From Oscillibacter sp. (GTDB lineage: Bacteria > Bacteroidota > Bacteroidia > Bacteroidales > Bacteroidaceae), in contig CAVBFA010000002.1 of the NCBI GenBank assembly GCA_963594595.1, positions 1 through 50,845 on the forward strand: a stretch of DNA of 50,845 nucleotides. The letters are read 5' to 3'. Of this stretch, positions 1-50,845 are shown piece after piece. A model generated the notes under the pieces. The model was given only the letters and a program-made list of their open reading frames with translations, did not search any database and was not told where the DNA came from. Every line of letters starts with the position of its first letter. The stretch's first letter is position 1. The position numbers and the translations under genes are program-made.

Positions 1-57
1 TACCATTATTATTCAAATGCCTATAAGTCAAATATGACTCTGAAAGTTGTATCTTCA

Positions 58-147
58 TGTAGCATCATTGATTTTCAAGATATTGCATAGCTTTTATAGG
101 CATTGAAATATGTAGCCTACTTGTAGCGTCTTGTAGCACGATGTAGC
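58..147. repeat. Phased TGTAGC direct repeats (58, 111, 122, 132, 142)
   Basis: Five exact TGTAGC copies, four at 10-11 bp period; 11-bp inverted repeat AATGCCTATAA (16-26) / TTATAGGCATT (94-104) nearby. Confidence 0.7.
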
Positions 148-243
148 GTTATATCCTATTATTGGTACAAAATTAGTATAAAACCATTAGAATAAAGATA
201 AATTCCTCGTGTTTAACACTAACTTTGCACCAAAATACTGATG

Positions 244-639
244 TTAGAGGCTACAAACAAAGTCCTTTACCTTTGCTTGGTATTCTTCCTTGGTCATACC
301 TCCAGTCTCTATCATTGAGTCAAGTACATCGCCAAGCTCATCAAAAGCAATATCATGATGATATTCTTTTGTTGTTCCATCCTTTTCCCCATAGATACGG
401 TAGTAATCAGAGCCTTCATCCAAAGCAATATATACCTTGCCCTGAAATTGGAAACCATCCACCTGCATGACAAGAGCCGCCATAGTGAAGTCTTCGCCAT
501 TGACATTCTTGACAATTTGGGTAGCATACATCTTTGAGATGCCCCAACTATTGATAACGTCTATCGAGGTTGTGTGAAGCAATTGGGAGAAGATGGTGTT
601 CACAACGCTTCTTACATGTTCTCTGTCTAATGTTTTCAT
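244..639 (-). CDS. Hypothetical protein, paralog of 671-1072
   Basis: 131-aa ORF; shares SWG, ATQI, AAL, GF.xQG and LGxVLDxxIETGGM blocks with the adjacent ORF. Confidence 0.85.
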   Translation of the reverse strand: MKTLDREHVRSVVNTIFSQLLHTTSIDVINSWGISKMYATQIVKNVNGEDFTMAALVMQVDGFQFQGKVYIALDEGSDYYRIYGEKDGTTKEYHHDIAFDELGDVLDSMIETGGMTKEEYQAKVKDFVCSL

Positions 640-670
640 TCGTATAATCTTTTAAGTGGATATTCTTATA

Positions 671-1072
671 TTAAGCCAAAAGTCTCTTTGCATATTCACG
701 CAATCTTTGCAGGTGCTCCTGTTGGCTCATGCCGCCTGTCTCAATAACCGTATCGAGCACTTGCCCCAAGTCTTTATAGGCAATACTCTTCTTTTCCTCA
801 TGCAACATTCCGTTCTGTTCGCTATACAAGCCAAAGGCTTGCTTAACTCGGTTATTGGTTACATAGAGCCTGCCTTGGTAGCTGAAGCCATTAACATCCA
901 TCATCAAGGCAGCCACGTTTTTCTCCGTTCCATCAACCGTGATTTCTATTTGAGTTGCAACCTTGTTTGTTACTCCCCAACTATACACTACATTAAGAGG
1001 TGTGGTTAAAGCCAACTGCTGCAAGATGGTGCATGCAGCTCTTCCAATCTGTTTCTTACTTAATCTCTTCAT
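671..1072 (-). CDS. Hypothetical protein, paralog of 244-639
   Basis: 133-aa ORF, colinear similarity to neighbour, same strand, short spacer. Confidence 0.85.
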   Translation of the reverse strand: MKRLSKKQIGRAACTILQQLALTTPLNVVYSWGVTNKVATQIEITVDGTEKNVAALMMDVNGFSYQGRLYVTNNRVKQAFGLYSEQNGMLHEEKKSIAYKDLGQVLDTVIETGGMSQQEHLQRLREYAKRLLA

Positions 1073-1129
1073 ATTTCAAAGTGGTTATGCAAAGGGCAAA
1101 GCAGTGAACCTTATCCCTTGCGGTAAGTA

Positions 1130-1711
1130 CTAATCAAATTCAAATGGGTGTATATAATAATAGGTGTCCTCCGAGTCGTACTCGTATTCGTTGATGAAGT
1201 CCACCATTTCTTCCTCTGTCCGCTCGCCTTGGTTAATGCCGGTCTTCTCACACCATGCCTCAATAGCATCGCAGATGGTGTCATACTCATCTTCACAAAT
1301 ATCTTCAAAGTTGCCACCAGAAGAACTTACACAACACTCTTCGGGAAAGAAGTTTCCTTCATCGTGGACGTAAAATATCTCACATCCACATTCTATCTCA
1401 CGGTAACTTATAGAAAGTCCATTGCCAAGTACCTTATTCAATTCATCAAAGAACAGGTCGCAAGCCGACCATGCACTTTCGCTGTCGAATGATAACAGAC
1501 CTCTGTCCTCGTCATCCTCGAACTCTGCCCAGTAGATTTTTCCACGAACAGATATACCGCTATGCTCATAGTCAATGCCATAGTGCTCTGCCAACTTGTA
1601 AAGATAGACATCCTTACTATTCACTCCCATCATTTGAAGGGTGTTCCAAAGGTCGCTCAATGCCTTGCGTGAACCACTCACCTTGTACTGCGTATCACAA
1701 ATATTGCTCAT
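1130..1711 (-). CDS. Highly acidic hypothetical protein (possible YubB/DUF1281-like ferredoxin fold)
   Basis: 193-aa ORF rich in D/E; LSFDSESAWS resembles the F-x-T/S-x-W motif of YubB-like mobile-element proteins (weak). Confidence 0.8.
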   Translation of the reverse strand: MSNICDTQYKVSGSRKALSDLWNTLQMMGVNSKDVYLYKLAEHYGIDYEHSGISVRGKIYWAEFEDDEDRGLLSFDSESAWSACDLFFDELNKVLGNGLSISYREIECGCEIFYVHDEGNFFPEECCVSSSGGNFEDICEDEYDTICDAIEAWCEKTGINQGERTEEEMVDFINEYEYDSEDTYYYIHPFEFD

Positions 1712-1747
1712 ACTTCAAATTTTTTATTTTCCCTTTCGTAGAAAACT

Positions 1748-1930
1748 ACTTCCGGGATTTGTTAGAAATTATGTGCCTTAAAAAGGTGTTATGCACATCG
1801 ATGCAAGGTTTGGCACCAAAATACGACCCGTAGGCGTGGAGATTTTGGAAGCCAAGCAGGGCCTTGACCTTGCAAAGCGATAAGGCATAACAAATACCTT
1901 TGCACAATAATTTCAATAAATCTCGGAAGT
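1748..1930. promoter_or_regulatory. Long imperfect hairpin, candidate single-stranded-DNA (Frpo-like) promoter
   Basis: Arms pair over most of their length (ACTTCCGGGATTT/AAATCTCGGAAGT, TGCAAGGT/ACCTTGCA, CCAAAAT/ATTTTGG); consensus -7 TACCTTTG at 1895-1902 only on the distal arm. Confidence 0.7.
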
Positions 1931-2079
1931 TATATAATAAGATGGTGAGTGTTCTATGTTTATAATGTAACTTAGGACATTCTCTAAAAAAGTTAGCTGT
2001 AAAAGTGGTAACATACCACCATAAAAGGTGGTGCGACTTAATTTCAATTTTAATATAGATAGTAGTTGTTTGAGCAAAG

Positions 2080-2128
2080 AAATCCGCATACAGAGGCAGA
2101 CTTTATCTGTAACTGTATGCGGATTTTT
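2080..2128. terminator. Intrinsic terminator, probably bidirectional
   Basis: 14-bp stem AAATCCGCATACAG / CTGTATGCGGATTT with A- and T-rich flanks, downstream of the HNH gene. Confidence 0.8.
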
Positions 2129-2152
2129 ATTATATTGTTTGTGTGTGTGATT

Positions 2153-3037
2153 TTATCTCCACTTATAAGTAAAGAACCAATCAAAGTCCATTAGGAGATC
2201 CCAATAAGTACAATCTCCATCAGGAAACCCTGTGTACTTGTGGTATTCATTAGGAATGTTTTCAAAATTATTCAGATTGAAGATTTTCTTAAAGAATATG
2301 ATTCTGTCTTTTAACAGGTAACCTCTGACTGTTTCAATGTCAAGTTCTTGGTTGAATTCCCATATTTTATGCCATAAAATACGGATTTCCTTATAGGTGT
2401 CATCGTTAAGCGTTTGCAACATTTTCACCCATGATTCGTCTTTGGGGTATATTGCAACTGCACCGGAAATACCATCATAGACTATTCGCTCTTTCACCTC
2501 TGGCATAAGCATCAACGGTAACAAGTAGTCGTTGCTTCTTGCATTGTTGCAGCAACATCCACTGCTGACTTCTTCAAATTTTCCATAGCATGAGGCCAAC
2601 AGATTGGCAAGAGCAATACGGTGTGGAAATATTTTCACTCTTTCGATGTCTTGGACTGACTTGAAATTCCTTTTAGCAAAATCAGAGTCTAATTCCACAT
2701 TATCTGCTAACCATTTTGAGTTTTCTGTATATTTAGCGAACTCGTTGTGAGTGTCATTGGCTTTTAGGTTTCTGGGAATAACATGCTCTATGTTAAGTGC
2801 AGGGCTTTTGAGCCGCCTCATACAATAGCAACATCTGTCGTGTTGCTCTTGCAGAAGCAGGTTCTCCCAGCCAGCAATGCCCTTACGGTATTTCTTGGAT
2901 GAGAAATTACTATATGACTGATCTGAGTTTACACTTGGATAAAACGATTGTGTATCTTCGTTATAGCAGTCTTTTAGAAACTCTACATCCATTTTTTGCT
3001 CTTGCTCCAGGAATGGCCTTTTATCTATGAATTCCAT
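2153..3037 (-). CDS. ptuB: HNH endonuclease, PtuB/Septu-like
   Basis: LLQEQHDRCCYCMR, NIEHVIP, NLLASC, CCCNNAR motifs; overlaps the stop of the upstream ATPase. Confidence 0.75.
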   Translation of the reverse strand: MEFIDKRPFLEQEQKMDVEFLKDCYNEDTQSFYPSVNSDQSYSNFSSKKYRKGIAGWENLLLQEQHDRCCYCMRRLKSPALNIEHVIPRNLKANDTHNEFAKYTENSKWLADNVELDSDFAKRNFKSVQDIERVKIFPHRIALANLLASCYGKFEEVSSGCCCNNARSNDYLLPLMLMPEVKERIVYDGISGAVAIYPKDESWVKMLQTLNDDTYKEIRILWHKIWEFNQELDIETVRGYLLKDRIIFFKKIFNLNNFENIPNEYHKYTGFPDGDCTYWDLLMDFDWFFTYKWR

Positions 3038-4481
3038 ACTCCGCTGCCTTCTTTTTTATATTGTCCAGAACTTTAGCGTCTGTTCCGACAAGCTCTAATA
3101 TCTTATTGTAAATGGTTTGACTCTCTTCTTTCAAATCCATAGAAAGATAAGACAGATACAAGTCTTCCAAATTTTTTAGATTCTCATTTTTTGAAGGAGT
3201 CTCCATGAAATCTCTAAGAACAGCATTGTAATCAACTCCAATCAGATTTGGCAGTGCGTGAGGTTCTTCTTCTCCAGTATTCATTACAAGTATCTGATTG
3301 GCTTTTACGTTTGTACCATACATAACAGAAGTGTCCAAATTAGAGATTACAGCAACGGAATGCGTAGATACAAAGAATTGAATATTAGGGAATGTTGTAC
3401 AGAATGCATTTAATACAACCTGCTCCAATGCAGGATGCAAATGCAAGTCAATCTCGTCAATCACAACCACACCGTTTGATTCTATACCTTGATTGAGAAT
3501 ATATGAACGATATGCCATATCTATGACGATGGAGAACAAGCGTCTATAACCTGCTGGAAGGTCTTGAAGAAGACTCGTTTTACCATTTTTGAAATTAATT
3601 GTCAACTTATATCCCTCTTCAGATTGTGTCGCAAAGAAAAAGTCGATGTCATAACCATCAGACTGTACCTTTGGCAAATAAGATATGAATTTTGACAGCT
3701 TCTGCTGTATGTAGTCAACTTCATCGTGTAGCGGCACAAAAGTCTCGTTTAAACGCTTTTGATCTTCTACAAGTTTCTTGTACTCAGCATCTTCTTCAAG
3801 TTCTTTTTCATTCAGAACAGTTTCCTTTTCATGGATGGCTGATGCCAGTCTTGAAGCTGGGGTGTAAAGAGGTTGCATCTTAGCCAAGCAATTGCATAAC
3901 CTTGTTTCCCAAAGTGATGTGCATGCAGACTCTTCGTCCCACTGGTAATATCCAAAATTACGAGGTATCGAGTCTTGATTGATGACCTTCAATGTAGATT
4001 TTGTTATCTTGGAATATACATGAGGGTAAGAATCCGAATAATATGCCAACAAAGGCCATTGGCTATTAGGAGCTTTGGCAGAAGACATAAATGCCAGAAA
4101 GGCATCTTTGTATAATGAAGGATATAATGACGCCTTGGGGAAATTGCGCTTAAAGAGTGTCCAAGTCAAAACCTCACCATAGAAAAATCCATCAGCTTCT
4201 ATACTGGCTTCGTCTGCATATTCACGAGTTACTGCATCGAAATGAAAATCCGATGTATCATATCCTCTCACATTGAGAGTGTTGTTGCCAGCCGATAGAA
4301 AATCTGTCCCCAATGATTTATCATTAGAAAAGACAAAACTCAAGGCTTTAACCAAGGCGTGTATGAGTGTACTTTTACCTGTTCCGTTCCGGCCAATCAG
4401 CACATTCGCTTTAGGGCAGAATGTTGCCGAGTAACGATTGAAACATTTAAAGTTCTGTATCTTTATATGTTTAATATCCAT
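3021..4481 (-). CDS. ptuA: ABC/AAA-type ATPase, PtuA/Septu-like
   Basis: IQNFKCF start, Walker A GRNGTGKS, signature LPAGYR, Walker B/D-loop VVIDEIDLHLHP, H-loop STHS. Confidence 0.8.
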   Translation of the reverse strand: MDIKHIKIQNFKCFNRYSATFCPKANVLIGRNGTGKSTLIHALVKALSFVFSNDKSLGTDFLSAGNNTLNVRGYDTSDFHFDAVTREYADEASIEADGFFYGEVLTWTLFKRNFPKASLYPSLYKDAFLAFMSSAKAPNSQWPLLAYYSDSYPHVYSKITKSTLKVINQDSIPRNFGYYQWDEESACTSLWETRLCNCLAKMQPLYTPASRLASAIHEKETVLNEKELEEDAEYKKLVEDQKRLNETFVPLHDEVDYIQQKLSKFISYLPKVQSDGYDIDFFFATQSEEGYKLTINFKNGKTSLLQDLPAGYRRLFSIVIDMAYRSYILNQGIESNGVVVIDEIDLHLHPALEQVVLNAFCTTFPNIQFFVSTHSVAVISNLDTSVMYGTNVKANQILVMNTGEEEPHALPNLIGVDYNAVLRDFMETPSKNENLKNLEDLYLSYLSMDLKEESQTIYNKILELVGTDAKVLDNIKKKAAEYGIHR

Positions 4482-4500
4482 AGCCTACAACTTAAATATA

Positions 4501-4917
4501 TTATTGTTTGACCTCATTTATGGTCAATGTCTTAACTTGTATTTTCAGATTTTCAATCAAGTCATTCTTTGTGTTAAGAGTTTCCTCCTTTGCTTTCAAT
4601 GTCTCTCTAAGTCCCGATATTTCACGTCTCAAAGACTCATTCTCTATCATCAGATTGGTATTTACAGACACGTTACCAACATTATTGTTATTACCATTGA
4701 CATTGTTTGCCCTAAACGAACTTCCAACGCGAAAGTAATCCAACGGCATATGAAAGAAATCGGCCAGCACCTCCAATTTAGAGAGGCTAATATCTTTAGT
4801 ACGTCGGAAATAGCTCATTGTCTGTTTGCTTTTCTTGAATAGCAAGCTAATTAAATCCTGCTGTTGCTCCTTTGTCAAACCTGCATACAGGTTATCTATT
4901 AAATCTAAATTCAACAT
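4501..4917 (-). CDS. XRE-family HTH repressor with C-terminal coiled coil
   Basis: ISLSKLEVLADFFHMPLDYF is a typical XRE C-terminal helix motif; Asn/Gly linker then heptad-rich tail; divergent from a small HTH gene. Confidence 0.8.
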   Translation of the reverse strand: MLNLDLIDNLYAGLTKEQQQDLISLLFKKSKQTMSYFRRTKDISLSKLEVLADFFHMPLDYFRVGSSFRANNVNGNNNNVGNVSVNTNLMIENESLRREISGLRETLKAKEETLNTKNDLIENLKIQVKTLTINEVKQ

Positions 4918-4964
4918 AATGCTATATAATATTATAGTGGTGTTGTATTAATTTGTACTAATAC

Positions 4965-4980
4965 GCCCAATATATTGAGC
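4965..4980. promoter_or_regulatory. Palindromic operator-like site GCCCAATATATTGAGC
   Basis: 15/16 match to palindrome GCTCAATATATTGAGC that recurs in other intergenic regions. Confidence 0.65.
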
Positions 4981-4987
4981 AATACAC

Positions 4988-5030
4988 TTTGTTTTCTCCA
5001 ATGTTTGTACTACTTTTGCATGCAAATATA
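4988..5030. promoter_or_regulatory. Overlapping divergent Bacteroidota sigma-A promoters
   Basis: + strand TTTG (4988-4991), 19-nt spacer, TACTTTTG (5011-5018); - strand TATATTTG (5023-5030). Confidence 0.75.
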
Positions 5031-5091
5031 ATCAAAACCTCAGATAAACAATCAGAGAATAGTAATTATTTTGCGATAAAATATTAAGCAA

Positions 5092-5313
5092 ATGACACAA
5101 AAGGAAATTGCAGACTATTATAGTAGGCTATCGAACGGTGAGAAAGGGCGTTTTACCGCTTTCCTTAGTATGACACTCGGTGGCTCTCCTCACACTTGGC
5201 AGCAAAAGATATTGGGATGGACTCGCAATATAATAGGCAGACCCATATCACCTGTTGTAGAAAAGGAACTAACTTCAATTATCGAGAAAGACAAATGGAG
5301 GATGTCGTATTAA
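5092..5313 (+). CDS. Small Cro-like/HTH DNA-binding protein (putative)
   Basis: 73-aa ORF first in the rightward transcript, divergent from XRE gene; flanked by identical TAAAATATTAAGCA at 5077-5090 and 5311-5324. Confidence 0.7.
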   Translation: MTQKEIADYYSRLSNGEKGRFTAFLSMTLGGSPHTWQQKILGWTRNIIGRPISPVVEKELTSIIEKDKWRMSY

Positions 5314-5336
5314 AATATTAAGCATCGACGTATATA

Positions 5337-8300
5337 ATGAAGCGAATAAAGGACAAATACATAGACATTGTAAAATCACGAGTTGATATTTGCCAGCTCG
5401 TGGTAGACCTCTGTCCTGGCACGGTGTTAAAGTCGTCTGGACCACATAGAAAGAAATGCTGTTGTGTCTTTCATCAAGAGGAGACCCCCTCATTGATGTT
5501 GGACACCACAATGAACCGTTACAAATGCTACGGATGTGGGAAAAGCGGCGATGTCATTTCTTTTGTAGAGGAGTGCCAAGGCGTTGGATTCATTGATGCT
5601 ATCCGATGCCTTTTGGATATGTACTGTCCCGATGTCGATACACATGATCTTTTTGACCAAAGCACGACCCCAGAACAGGAGGAGCGTGACAGAAAAGCAG
5701 ATACCATGTATATCTATAACCAGTACGCCCAAGAGTTCTTTCGAGCACAGTACGAAGCAGACAATGATGAAGCAGCTGCGTGTCGTAGATACGCCGAAAA
5801 AACGAATGGCTCAACAAGTGGACGATGGGATAAGGATTTCTGCCGAACATTCGGTCTTGGCTACAGTCCAGCAAGAGGGAACAAATTTCTTCAATATGCA
5901 AAGGATAAGGGACTAAATCTGCAAATACTGGTTGAGATCGGTTTGCTCGGAGAGGATGACAGTCGCCCAGGTAACTACTACGACTTCTACCGTGGGCGCT
6001 TGATGATACCGCAGCGTGATAGATATGGCAGAGTACAGACCTTCACGGCAAGAAGCATCAATCCACAGGCGGCTGTCAAATACCTCAATGGATGCGACAG
6101 CCTTATATACCGAAAGAGCACATCCATTTTTGGCATTGATATAGCCATGAAAGCTGCGCGTCAATCGGGTAAGGTGTATCTTGTAGAGGGCGCACCGGAT
6201 GTTATGCGTCTTCAATCATTGGGTATAGCCAATGTGATAGCCTCACTCGGAGGCAGTTGGTCAAAGGAACAACTTGGATATTTCAGCAAGTTCAGTTGTA
6301 GTCTGTGCTTCATCCCTGACAGCGATAAGCCCAAGGATGGTGAGAAATTTGGAGCTGGAGAAAAGTTCGTGTTTGCCAATGGCAGACTGGCAACAGAGAT
6401 GGGTTTTCAAGTCTCAGTGCGTGAAATACCCAAAGAAGGTAACGCCAAGCAAGACGCAGACTCGTACATCACCTGTCTTGAACGTTGGGAAGGTCTGACA
6501 GAAAAGGACTTCATACTTTGGTATGCCGACAAACACTACGATACAGAAAGCACCAACGATGACCAGCTGAAAGTTATCAGCGATGTATGCGACCTACTTG
6601 TCAACATACAATCGGAGGTGCTTCAAGCTTCTCTGTTGACGGATCTGAAAGACAAATACCGTAAAGCCTCTGTTTGGAAAGGCGCTTTAGCAGACGCTGC
6701 AAGAAGACGGCAGGAGCAGAAACGGAGACAAGCCATCAAAAAGTCAGATGAGCTTGAAGGCTATCGTTTCTACAGAAAGGGCTATCACTATTACGACCTT
6801 GACCCACAAGGACGTGAAAGAGCTTGGACGAACTTCATCATTCGCCCATTGTTCCTCATTGCTGATGACAACAAGCCAAGCCGTATCTTTGAATTGGAAA
6901 ACGAAAACCGCATCAAACGAACCATAGAGCTACAGCAAGCCGACGTGACAAAGCTTGACCGCTTCAAAGAGAAAATCGAAGGCAAGGGCGACTTCCGCTT
7001 CTTCGAGAAACAGGAAAAATACGAGTTATTGAAAGCATACATCTACGGCAAGACAGAAGAAGCACAGCGAGTACCGCAATTGGGGTGGAACAATATAGGT
7101 GAGAGAGGCTTTTATGCTTTTACCAATGGTATTGTATATGAAGGAAAGTGGAAGCCTGTCGATGACTATGGCATCATCAGACTGGACAACGAGAACTTCT
7201 ACCTGCCGGCTCTTTCGAAGATACACAAGCACAACAAGAATGCCTATGTCAATGAGAGGCGTTTTATCCATGCGCCTAAGCGTGAGGTCTCTACCCAAGA
7301 ATACTTTGCGCTGCTTCATGAGTTATATGGAAACAATGGAATTGCGGCCATCTGCTTTTATCTTGCCACATTGTTTAGGGATATCATCACTGATACGACA
7401 CGCTCGTTTCCTATACTGAACATCTACGGCAAGAAAGGCACTGGAAAGACAGAATTTGCACTGTCGCTCATCAATCTGTTCCAGAGAAATCCAGAAGTCA
7501 GCAATTTGGACAGCACCACCTATTATGCTATGGGTGACAAATGCGCTGAAGTCAGCAATATGCTCGTTCATTTTGATGAATACAAAAACTCGTTGAGCAA
7601 GAAGCATATAGACTTTCTGAAAGGCATCTATGACAATGCCGGACGCTCGAAAAGGTCAGCAGACGGGGAGCGAAGGGAGTCCACGAATGTAGACTGTGGT
7701 GTTGTGCTCACCGGGCAAGAGATGCCAACGGCAGATATAGCCCTGTTTTCAAGAGTTATCTTCTTGGAGTCTCAGAGAAGTGAGCGAACAAAGGAAGAAA
7801 CTGACAAGTACCAGACATTCATGAAATTGCGCAATATGTGTCCGACCAATATAACAGTCAGTCTGATGCGTTATCGTGACAACTTTAACGCCGGATGGTT
7901 CAACGCATGGAAAAGAGCCTTGGGTGAGATAAAGAGCGAGGTGGATTACAGTACCATAGGAGAACGCTTCATCAATAACTGGGCAATGATGTTGGCGACA
8001 TACTATTGTCTGCATCCCATAGCGGAAGAACTTCCCTTTTCCGAGAAAGAAGTGCATGACATTTGCATTGAGGGACTGAAGTACCAACATTCATTGTGCA
8101 ACAGCACGGACGAGATAGCAGTATTCTGGTCGATGTTCTCCAAGGCAAGACAACTTGGAGACATAAGGGAAGGACAGGACTACAAGGTTTGCCTAATGAA
8201 TACGTTGAAAGTGACAGCAAAAGGCAAGCAGCGCAAGGTGGTAGACTTTGAAACGGACAGATACGTCCTCTTTATAAGGGAGAAAATCTGTATTGCTAAG

Positions 8301-49510: not shown

Positions 49511-49627
49511 GTGTCTATAGAATCAAGATTTATGGCTTAATGTAGAAAATAATTCTTCAAACAGGAAAATATTTATCGTATTAGGCAATTTCCAATATAA
49601 AAGCCTTACCTTTGTAATCAAAATATT

Positions 49628-50659
49628 CTAAAATACTATAGTAATGGCTGACAATTGTGCCTTGCGCTCCTGCAAACTCTTCTTATCACCAAAGATAAAT
49701 TCGGTGCCTTTCTTTTCTGCATTGACTTGAAGCGTGGCATCAAAAGACTTGCCACTCTTCGAGGTCATACCCTCTACTTTCACAGCCTTGCCCTCAAGGA
49801 GGTCTTTGTACTGCAGGTCTGAGAGGGTGACGCCTTTTATTTCCTTGGGGATAGACACTCTGTCGGCACGCAAAGCGATAACTTCATTCGTCTGTGGGTC
49901 AATGGAAACATAGGCAGAGAAAGGCTCGCCGTTTTTGGGCGTTACTTCGATGGTTTTACCCAAATTTCCCGTTGCCAAAAGGATTTCCTTTTCCTCATTC
50001 GAAAACTTGTGTCCCATATAGGGAAAGTCGAGTTGCGGTTCTTTTCTTAGGGAATGGACGGCTATGGAGATTTTTCCCTCTTCGTCTGTCCGGAATGCAA
50101 GGCGTGCTTCGGTGTGGATGGTGGTTTCTCCTACGGGAATGGCAATCGGCAAAAGATTGGTTTTCTGCCAATTGAGCATTTTGTCGAGTTCGCCGTTCTG
50201 TTCGAGTTTTTCTTTGGAAAGTCCTAAGGTTTCAAGCATCTTCCAGTCCACGCGTTCGGGATTGATGGCTGTGGCATTTTTCTGCTGAGGAAGGTAATCT
50301 TCGAAATCGAGCTGAATGTCTTTTATCTTCTGCTGATTGTCGGGATTTTGCTTGTTTTGCAACATAGTTTTGAGATTCGCCACGCCTTGTTCCACATTGT
50401 CAGCAAGCACCTTATACAAGCCAAAACGCTTGGGTTCGTTGAACTGTTTGAGGAAATTCTTCATGAAGTTCTTCAAGAGTCCATCTCTACTATTGAATTT
50501 GAAGAAGTCGCCTTGGTTGGCTTCTTCGGCAGGGGATATCTTGAGTTTCCCCTTTTCATCGATGTTTGAAACTACGGAAAGTTTACCTACTTCCGCCTCG
50601 TTTTTGACCTCCGTGCGGTCTTCCAAGACCAGCACATAATTATTGTTGTTCGATTCCAT
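49628..50659 (-). pseudogene. DUF3945/DUF4099 conjugative-transposon protein, probably C-terminally truncated
   Basis: LKNFMKNF, VDWKMLETLGLS, LLATGNLG, YVSIDPQTNE, GKSFDATLQVNAEKKG motifs; ends abruptly in AT-rich sequence (…AITIVF). Confidence 0.65.
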
Positions 50660-50845
50660 AATGGTTTGTTGTTGAATGGATAATAGTTTTGACGACAAAG
50701 ATATCATCTTACGTCTGCACGGCTGGAATTTAGGGGTTTATGAAGGAAAACAAAAGAAAAATGAAGATTTCTGCGGAAATCTTTGTTCGAATCAGAAGTT
50801 CTTTGCATATTTGCAACCTAACATGTTCGTTATACAAGATTATAT

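Follow-up and report, generated by a model that had tools for sequence, protein, structure and literature searches.

Promoters that work on single-stranded DNA (ssDNA) have been demonstrated, according to the literature on these systems, only in F and in IncI plasmids of enterobacteria (PMC9849209, PMC12672017, PMC11541004). Frpo1/Frpo2 (ssp1a/b) of plasmid F and ssi1-3 of ColIb-P9/pESBL make up class 1 of these promoters. Published screens for Frpo relied on BLAST comparison with known Frpo sequences and on sigma70 boxes (PMC11541004). It was suggested by Wen et al. that ssDNA promoters are not recognised by the sigma factors of distant bacteria, and for this reason phylum-specific versions can be predicted. 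In a literature search that left subscription journals mostly outside its reach, no published report of a ssDNA promoter from Bacteroidota was found; the main text of PMC11541004 does not contain "bacteroid", and among the supplement matches listed there were only TraN rows.

The window, by which we mean the whole stretch of 50,845 nucleotides that was analysed, is the entire contig C2 of a 290-contig genome (91% complete). Its proteins (DnaG-type primase, ParA, DUF4134 pilins, TraG, TraK, TraM, DUF4138, coupling protein, and the products of ArdC-type and SSB-like genes) mark a Bacteroidales conjugative element. Close to its left end there is a long hairpin, which with a probability of roughly 0.7 is a Frpo-like ssDNA promoter of this element, built from Bacteroidota sigma boxes. 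The neighbouring genes would most likely be switched on only while freshly transferred DNA is single-stranded. The locus has the following features:

1748-1930, + strand: imperfect fold-back hairpin of 183 nt, candidate ssDNA promoter, the + strand being the folding (template, T) strand (folding, inverted-repeat scan)
1895-1902, + strand: -7 box TACCTTTG on the gene-distal (non-template) arm, T1895 and A1896 being unpaired or held by G.T in the fold (sequence, fold)
1869-1872, + strand: -33-like (C)TTG on the distal arm, 22 nt upstream of the box and paired with CAAG (sequence, fold)
1781-1788, - strand: partner of the box, reading CACCTTTT on the coding strand, with two mismatches (sequence)
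1777-1781, + strand: template-side bulge of 5 nt within the box region, between TTT and G (fold; kept as a 4-6 nt bulge in the alignment)
1820-1846, + strand: apical module AAATAC-N-ACC / TGGAGATTT with an internal loop and a cGTAg loop, invariant in the family (invariant alignment columns)
2080-2126, no strand assigned: inverted repeat of 21 bp with T-runs on both sides (inverted-repeat scan)
1712-1772, - strand: predicted mRNA leader of about 60 nt, containing a small RNA hairpin as well as A-rich sequence ahead of the ATG (start-site offsets; leader fold of -10.6 kcal/mol)
1130-1711, - strand: 193-aa protein, first gene of the predicted operon (ORF; ferredoxin-like fold, weak YubB/DUF1281-like lead)
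671-1072, - strand: 133-aa protein, paralogue of the 131-aa gene with 37% identity (ORF, comparison)
244-639, - strand: 131-aa protein, last gene of the predicted operon (ORF)

Folded as DNA, the + strand of 1748-1930 reached -49.1 kcal/mol (z -9.73), and none of 200 shuffled sequences was as good; the value for the - strand was -45.6 kcal/mol (z -8.68). The arms, 1748-1776 and 1902-1930, are the longest inverted repeat within positions 1-6000. Between the start of the stem at 1748 and the ATG of the 193-aa ORF at 1711-1709 there are 36 nt. An earlier note on this DNA had described a 183-nt imperfect hairpin at that distance from the leftward operon; all its coordinates were right, and folding of both strands, which it had proposed as a check, favoured the + strand. 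The box is not part of a plain duplex in the fold, as 1893-1896 (AATA, including the invariant TA) are unpaired or held by G.T wobble. Such a fold-back is rare around boxes of this kind: none of 284 TAnnTTYG sites sampled from 25 other contigs of the genome lies in one, and among the 72 sites of the window only 1895-1902 passed a looser fold-back test.

Promoters of Bacteroidota are defined by a -33 TTG and a -7 TAnnTTTG box (PMC7366714, PMC9723704). TACCTTTG at 1895-1902 and the CTTG 22 nt upstream were found on the distal arm of the + strand exactly where the earlier note had placed them, and their partners on the template arm are just 15 nt apart. Because the coding strand reads CACCTTTT, with two mismatches, there is no consensus leftward duplex promoter at 1781-1788. 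The + strand box is the sole TAnnTTTG without a mismatch in 1701-2160; the - strand of this region has seven one-mismatch sites and no perfect -7 box. The claim that duplex DNA lacks a consensus leftward promoter was thus borne out for the - strand of 1701-2160, but it left unsaid that in duplex DNA the same box, as TTG-22-TACCTTTG on the + strand, is a complete promoter aimed rightward, away from the genes. No sigma70-type site was present on either strand of 1748-1930. Four real promoters of Bacteroides thetaiotaomicron have spacers of 19-20 nt, shorter than the 22 nt of the distal arm, and start 5-6 nt past the final G (PMC7366714 supplement); from these offsets a start at 1771-1772 (opposite 1907-1908) and a leader of about 60 nt are predicted. 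In the start-site table for strain VPI-5482 of this species (PMC7366714), among the matches listed, none of five starts with GACCTTG resembled the family arm; as this strain is without PcfK and is not a known carrier of the hairpin, the table speaks neither for nor against the promoter.

BLAST matches to the hairpin were obtained in 49 of 301 genomes of the bacterial family, and 28 of the 30 loci returned had the full hairpin, the other two (L007 and L029) being deletion forms. The alignment used for model R1 consisted of 26 loci, two that were identical to a third having been left out. Compensatory change was assessed in the unfitted MAFFT alignment of these 26 loci with the alifold structure: 117 cells were altered on both sides, compared to 35.5 in shuffled alignments and at most 35 in slid controls. 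For two of the five measures the signal was less clear, with 19 and 53 of 500 shuffles as high. Relatives are not independent of each other, and the p-value of 0.002 is for that reason too favourable. With an apical-module pattern that is blind to the -7 box at least 122 loci were collected; for the hits in 80 of these, an out-of-training alignment gave 434 versus 117 shuffled, a figure that leans toward structure because the alignment was model-fitted. About 70 paired positions covary in stems that vary in sequence, and the covariation check proposed earlier came out above shuffles in both data sets. The columns of the apical module are invariant in a sequence set chosen by BLAST and not by that motif. 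An Rfam search with the window and 20 family loci, another of the proposed checks, gave no match at the gathering score.

Judged by record titles, the family is spread over Bacteroidales, Flavobacteriales, Cytophagales, Sphingobacteriales and Chitinophagales, with a few contigs binned with Bacillota. A blastn search of the hairpin at distant settings against 72,556 plasmids matched six records, all of them from Bacteroidales. Copies on an element lie on one strand: up to eight candidates in L033, two or three in C7, G311 and G329, and two in G409, G455 and G459. Each is located about 35-160 nt before a gene start, in a single orientation. On contig C7 of the same genome two divergent family hairpins were noticed, at 5508-5709 (-) and near 2045 (-), together with a further -7 box near the contig start. 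A subfamily from Flavobacteriales and Cytophagales (L036, L062, L068, L070, L080, L098, L102 and similar) has a longer distal arm, with the box 61-68 nt from the apical motif; no -7 box was found in L062. These hairpins precede DUF6943 or DUF6266 genes; many of them are arranged in tandem and have no tra genes in the 10-kb flanks. The apical motif also occurs in 108 IMG/VR stretches (L210-L317), four times in one contig, a collection in which phage and ICE fragments were not distinguished. In the deletion forms L007 and L029/L164 (G191, G124) the 131-aa gene at about 415 is joined to the hairpin at about 1866 across a short shared GCCT stretch, and the proximal arm and two genes are gone; L007 retains the box and L029 is without it.

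Pooling of the loci gave 156 motif hits, of which 134 were distinct and had enough flank, and 124 of these folded at -25 kcal/mol or better, among the matches listed; the ten hairpins dropped at this threshold were L038, L041, L047, L084, L090, L112, L114, L141, L145 and L150. The distal arm carried TAnnTTYG in 119 of the 124, and in no case was it present on the proximal arm's coding strand. In the box-blind subset the numbers were 94 and 0 of 99, both counts referring to the matches listed, and in IMG/VR loci 59 versus 0 of 63 hairpins (from 73 distinct matches). The background for this pattern was 7.8% (1017 of 13000 random 110-nt windows). A TTG was found 18-26 nt upstream of the box, mostly at 19-23 nt, in 28 of 35 representatives, and the partner arm was only 14-19 nt long in all but one of the 15 cases where it could be measured. 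These values are consistent with the earlier proposal that folding makes the distal arm a non-template strand carrying the boxes of the host. The mean unpaired probability was highest, 0.5-0.6, around the TA of the box. Opposite the first T of the box, 22 of the 26 aligned homologues have G and 4 have A; this G can pair on the + strand alone and, moreover, disrupts the box on the coding strand. The CTn subfamily has TACCTTTT on its coding strand, which departs from the consensus by a single base. Divergent members have TTTG (at 20-21 nt) or ATTTG in place of CCTTG, with the partners compensated, which indicates that the conserved feature is the -33-like TTG.

The hairpin contains inverted AAGGT/ACCTT motifs in two pairs, which could alternatively be protein sites on duplex DNA, i.e. 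an array of repressor operators giving zygotic derepression, a mode that exists for establishment genes in p576 (PMC6294495). We find this hardly credible: it requires the leftward duplex promoter, which is absent, and operators have no need for about 70 covarying paired positions or for a strand bias.

The strand bias is pronounced. With DNA energies the box strand was the more stable one in 120 of the 124 hairpins; among representatives sharing less than 75% identity this was so in 38 of 39. In a strand-neutral alignment of the arms the ratio of G.T to A.C mismatches was 275:101 for all hairpins and 71:38 for the representatives, of which 23 favoured G.T and 9 A.C, with 7 ties; the hairpin of the window has two G.T and no A.C. 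DNA GNA triloops and RNA UNCG loops are both known for their stability. Among the apical loops 41 fit both a GNA triloop (+ strand, DNA) and a UNCG loop (- strand, RNA), 25 fit GNA alone, one UNCG alone and 57 neither. Stability, the excess of G.T and the loop types all favour the box strand, and the folding strand is consequently the template of the adjacent genes and not their mRNA. The window hairpin and its family thus share with ssDNA promoters a long stem-loop on the template strand of the downstream genes.

The same data bear on the alternative that the structure is formed by RNA, as an attenuator or riboregulator in the 5' leader of the leftward operon (- strand), with the promoter further upstream. 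The - strand does fold (z -8.7), covariation cannot separate DNA from RNA, and 42 of the 124 apical loops can be read as RNA cUNCGg on the - strand. However, even with RNA energies the + (box) strand was better in 36 of the 39 representatives, the G.T excess is on the + strand, a perfect leftward -7 box is missing upstream in 1701-2160, no Rfam family was matched, and the perfect box on the opposite strand would be left unexplained. An RNA leader is therefore highly improbable. A smaller, RNA-style hairpin with a purine-rich internal loop was noticed within the predicted leader (1730-1757, - strand), and by eye in several subfamilies; it may guard the 5' end or aid the release of the RNA from the ssDNA template.

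The three leftward genes have no family match, the weak YubB-like lead being the only one, and the operon ends about 240 nt from the contig start. The product of the first gene is very acidic (45 D/E versus 12 K/R) and has 715 relatives and a confident ferredoxin-like model (pLDDT 93.5); no Pfam, NCBIfam or PHROG family and no PDB fold at E<=0.001 matched it, and its direct BLAST comparison with a DUF1281 protein was not significant. The + strand ORF 1471-1833, antisense to this gene, was taken as spurious. At the 3' end of the operon (220-235, +) we noticed a consensus -7 box, TAACTTTG, pointing right and thus antisense into the three genes; it is missing in the relative L164. Next to hairpins of relatives (64 representatives of clusters with at least three members) the gene families were SSB, ArdA, DUF932, PcfK, PcfJ, DUF3873, DUF6956, LPD11, PRTRC, DUF1281, DUF6943 and DUF6266. 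In 61 contexts, all on loci longer than 5 kb, the proximal-side ORFs up to 2 kb away pointed away from the hairpin in a ratio of 110:36, and those on the distal side pointed back at it in a ratio of 65:31. Similarity of the relatives to the window stops at 1930-1935 in the contigs of all four sequencing runs, one RNA-labelled and three others, and in G231, G326 and G191, and this break indicates that the hairpin and the genes to its left travel as one module.

The full TTG-22-TACCTTTG on the + strand raises the question of an ordinary duplex promoter that fires rightward and produces an antisense or small RNA ending at 2080-2126, with the hairpin being incidental or acting on that RNA. In its favour, the proximal arm has been lost in L007 and L029; the former retains the box, the latter has lost that as well. 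But the fold is upstream of the rightward start and hence outside that RNA, the sequence to the right of 1930 is not conserved, and the outward promoter serves no conserved gene, the distal-side genes mostly facing the hairpin (65:31 within 2 kb). These observations make this explanation very unlikely. The repeat at 2080-2126, which a simple terminator scan missed, is read as a probable bidirectional terminator between the hairpin and a PtuAB-like operon. The latter (2153-4481, - strand) encodes an ATPase and an HNH nuclease whose likeness to PtuA/PtuB, of the Septu or retron Ec78 effector type, stays under the family cut-offs, and this pair to the right of the hairpin is variable cargo.

Protein-family and own-genome searches of the whole contig revealed neither a relaxase nor an oriT in the window. 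In the rest of the genome a single MOBP relaxase was encoded by C197 and a single MobV by C7, the latter contig being a second, related element. The primase of the window had no match among the plasmids searched. In an element of the same type in G065, with a family hairpin on the + strand and an ssb gene to the left of the primase, the end of the contig was reached before any relaxase. Bases 58-124 of the window resemble the end of contig C203 (G000:C203 5025-5091, L001; 96% over 67 nt), next to what we take to be a tRNA-Ser 3' remnant, and on these grounds the left end of the contig looks like an element terminus. It is on this side that an oriT was predicted by the earlier note. The contig depth is raised in 1-180, suggesting a repeated terminus (shared end-like region 58-190). 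At the other end, the DUF4099/DUF3945 gene (49628-50707, - strand) encodes 359 aa compared to about 467 aa in most of seven annotated relatives, where topoisomerase and large helicase-like genes come next; this suggests a shortened piece of the topoisomerase/helicase block of another element, with a junction near 49600.

Relatives provide information on the transferred strand. In nine CTn-type elements, picked as hairpin matches on long contigs, the order was always the same: genes for the coupling protein, the MOBP relaxase and mobA point left, tra genes point right, and after them come left-pointing ArdA or PcfJ/K genes with the hairpin on the + strand. The hairpin was 15-20 kb from mobA and opposite to the relaxase operon in all nine. 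In every case a single AYAYCYTGY was present on the + strand, preceded by an inverted repeat and no more than 1.5 kb away from the start of the relaxase, and the - strand had none; this pattern was drawn from eight of the nine elements, so that G342 is the sole independent case. More closely, a nick-like (C/T)A(C/T)C(C/T)TGC with an inverted repeat lies about 100-120 nt upstream of mobA in the nine elements (L192-L209). It is one or two bases off the MOBP consensus (C/T)ATCCTG(C/T), and the 5' end to which the MOBP relaxase becomes attached lies downstream of the inverted repeat (PMC3772185). Since the repeat and the MOBP-like nick motif are on the + strand and the order is oriT, tra, hairpin, the + strand would be the transferred one in the CTn-type relatives, an order that agrees with the relaxase-last rule (PMC11541004). 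Transfer of the + strand, as the earlier note predicted, fits the strand of the nick motif in nine of nine CTn-type relatives, and it is from these relatives that we infer it for the window.

In MobV-type elements (C7, G311, G329, L033, L071) the main hairpin cluster is about 5-17 kb upstream of mobV, with its genes pointing toward mobV. This arrangement, too, fits the relaxase-last rule. But a pMV158-like geometry would presumably make the other strand the transferred one in these relatives, and L033 has two weaker hairpins beyond mobV. A conserved block upstream of mobV (L033 8398-8602, G000:C7 15357-15564), containing in L033 a 12-nt palindrome and a GTGTCC..GGACAC repeat, is a candidate oriT of MobV-type Bacteroidales elements.

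The oriT-like inverted repeat of the CTn elements is enclosed by a GCAAGG/CCTTGC pairing that echoes the core of the hairpin. This shared outer pairing (GCAAGG / ACCTTGC around an inverted repeat) is the argument for a nic-like site or secondary oriT, in which the core GCAAGG..IR..ACCTTGC would be cut by the relaxase. Model R1, however, does not recognise any oriT region even at E values of up to 10, the divergent members that swap ACCTTG for ATTTG or TTTG with compensated partners keep TTG alone, the CTn elements already have an oriT beside mobA, and the -7 box would be unexplained, so we consider this scarcely plausible. Identity of the hairpin with a CTn-type MOBP oriT was rejected, there being no relaxase beside it, no recognition of the oriT regions by model R1 and no ACCTTG in divergent members. 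None of the four alternatives treated so far, i.e. the outward promoter, the RNA leader, the nic-like site and the operator array, accounts for both the polarity and the strand bias.

A further alternative concerns the second strand. The fold might mainly prime or pause its synthesis, by an RNA polymerase primer or a host priming protein at the apical loop, gene expression being secondary. The invariant apical internal loop lies far from the boxes, family members are also present in IMG/VR contigs, and in F ssp1/Frpo primes and ssp2 blocks conversion (10.64898/2026.01.09.698686). As the main function this is unlikely, given copies about 35-160 nt before gene starts, in one orientation and several per element, and the -33-like TTG that 28 of 35 representatives have 18-26 nt before the box. 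Priming or roadblock and ssDNA-promoter roles are nevertheless compatible and do not exclude each other. None of the readings weighed here accounts for the invariant apical module.

The ssoA and ssoU signals of rolling-circle plasmids are long, orientation-dependent ssDNA hairpins with conserved loop sequences, bound by the host RNA polymerase; there is one per replicon, a short primer is made, and there is no fixed link to a downstream gene. The hairpin family resembles them in its length, its dependence on orientation and its conserved loop, but it occurs in several copies, each before genes, on large conjugative elements.

A ssDNA promoter at this locus would act as follows. The + strand would enter the recipient as ssDNA and fold back on itself. 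The distal arm would become the non-template strand and supply the -33 TTG and the -7 TACCTTTG, the TA being pre-opened in a small bubble. Host RNA polymerase with sigma-A (sigma-ABfr) would start at about 1771-1772 and read leftward through three small establishment-type genes, until second-strand synthesis removed the fold and ended leftward transcription. The transcript may also prime the second strand, like Frpo1/2 of F. Recognition by RNA polymerase, the start site and the timing are what we infer here from DNA sequence. The geometry, the polarity of the box (119 of 124 versus 0), the bias of the folding strand, the neighbouring genes and the strand of the nick motif lend comparative support to the Frpo-type reading made originally from the window. 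Several points count against it: the position in CTn types, 15-20 kb from oriT and behind the whole tra operon, unlike in F, where Frpo is beside oriT; the distal spacing of 22 nt; the 42 apical loops that can be read as UNCG on the - strand; the CTn coding strand that is a single base off the consensus; and, in MobV-type relatives, the geometry that would reverse the strand.

The likeness to Frpo and ssi (PMC9849209, PMC12672017, PMC11541004) consists in a long stretch of the template/T strand that folds back and thereby rebuilds promoter boxes, in a position ahead of genes of ssb/ardA type that the T strand encodes (here in relatives), in several copies per element, and in the silence toward the genes as duplex that is predicted for the hairpin. 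The hairpin differs in having the Bacteroidota -33 TTG and -7 TAnnTTTG instead of TTGACA and TATAAT, an invariant apical module of its own and a bubble at the TA. It was not filed in the Frpo sequence family since its stem has no sigma70 boxes; it is the boxes, and not a direct sequence comparison, that set it apart. Class 2-3 ssDNA promoters (PMC9849209, PMC12672017, PMC11541004) are a parallel in that they, too, are sequence-unrelated hairpins with the job that is proposed here, but they are still sigma70-type and enterobacterial. Transient expression of establishment genes after transfer, as proposed here, is also achieved by the Reg576-repressed promoters of p576, which are, unlike the hairpin, duplex promoters with operators that need no strand-specific folding (PMC6294495).

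A wider reading is possible, though on balance doubtful: the hairpins of CTn-type and MobV-type ICEs, integrase islands and some viral contigs might represent a phylum-wide, separately evolved class of ssDNA promoters of Bacteroidota mobile elements that act as a conformational switch and go beyond an Frpo with exchanged boxes. The fold would pre-open the TA of the -7 box, asymmetric bulges would shorten the over-long spacer of 21-22 nt, and the apical internal loop would recruit a host factor or control second-strand synthesis. In that case the family model would point out the transferred strand and the early anti-defence genes even in elements without a known oriT.

The hairpin is a real, widespread and well-conserved DNA element and, judged by its comparative features, a strong candidate for a Bacteroidota-specific ssDNA promoter. 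The start at 1771-1772, the dependence on the strand and rescue by compensatory mutations are directly testable predictions. If the proposal is true, the device has been re-tuned to the host polymerase, and it would explain how ssb, ardA and similar genes are expressed at the entry of CTnDOT/CTn341-like elements, major gene carriers among gut Bacteroidales. The hairpin would then serve as a marker of the transferred strand, and it would provide a list of uncharacterised early genes, such as that of the acidic 193-aa protein, as anti-defence candidates.
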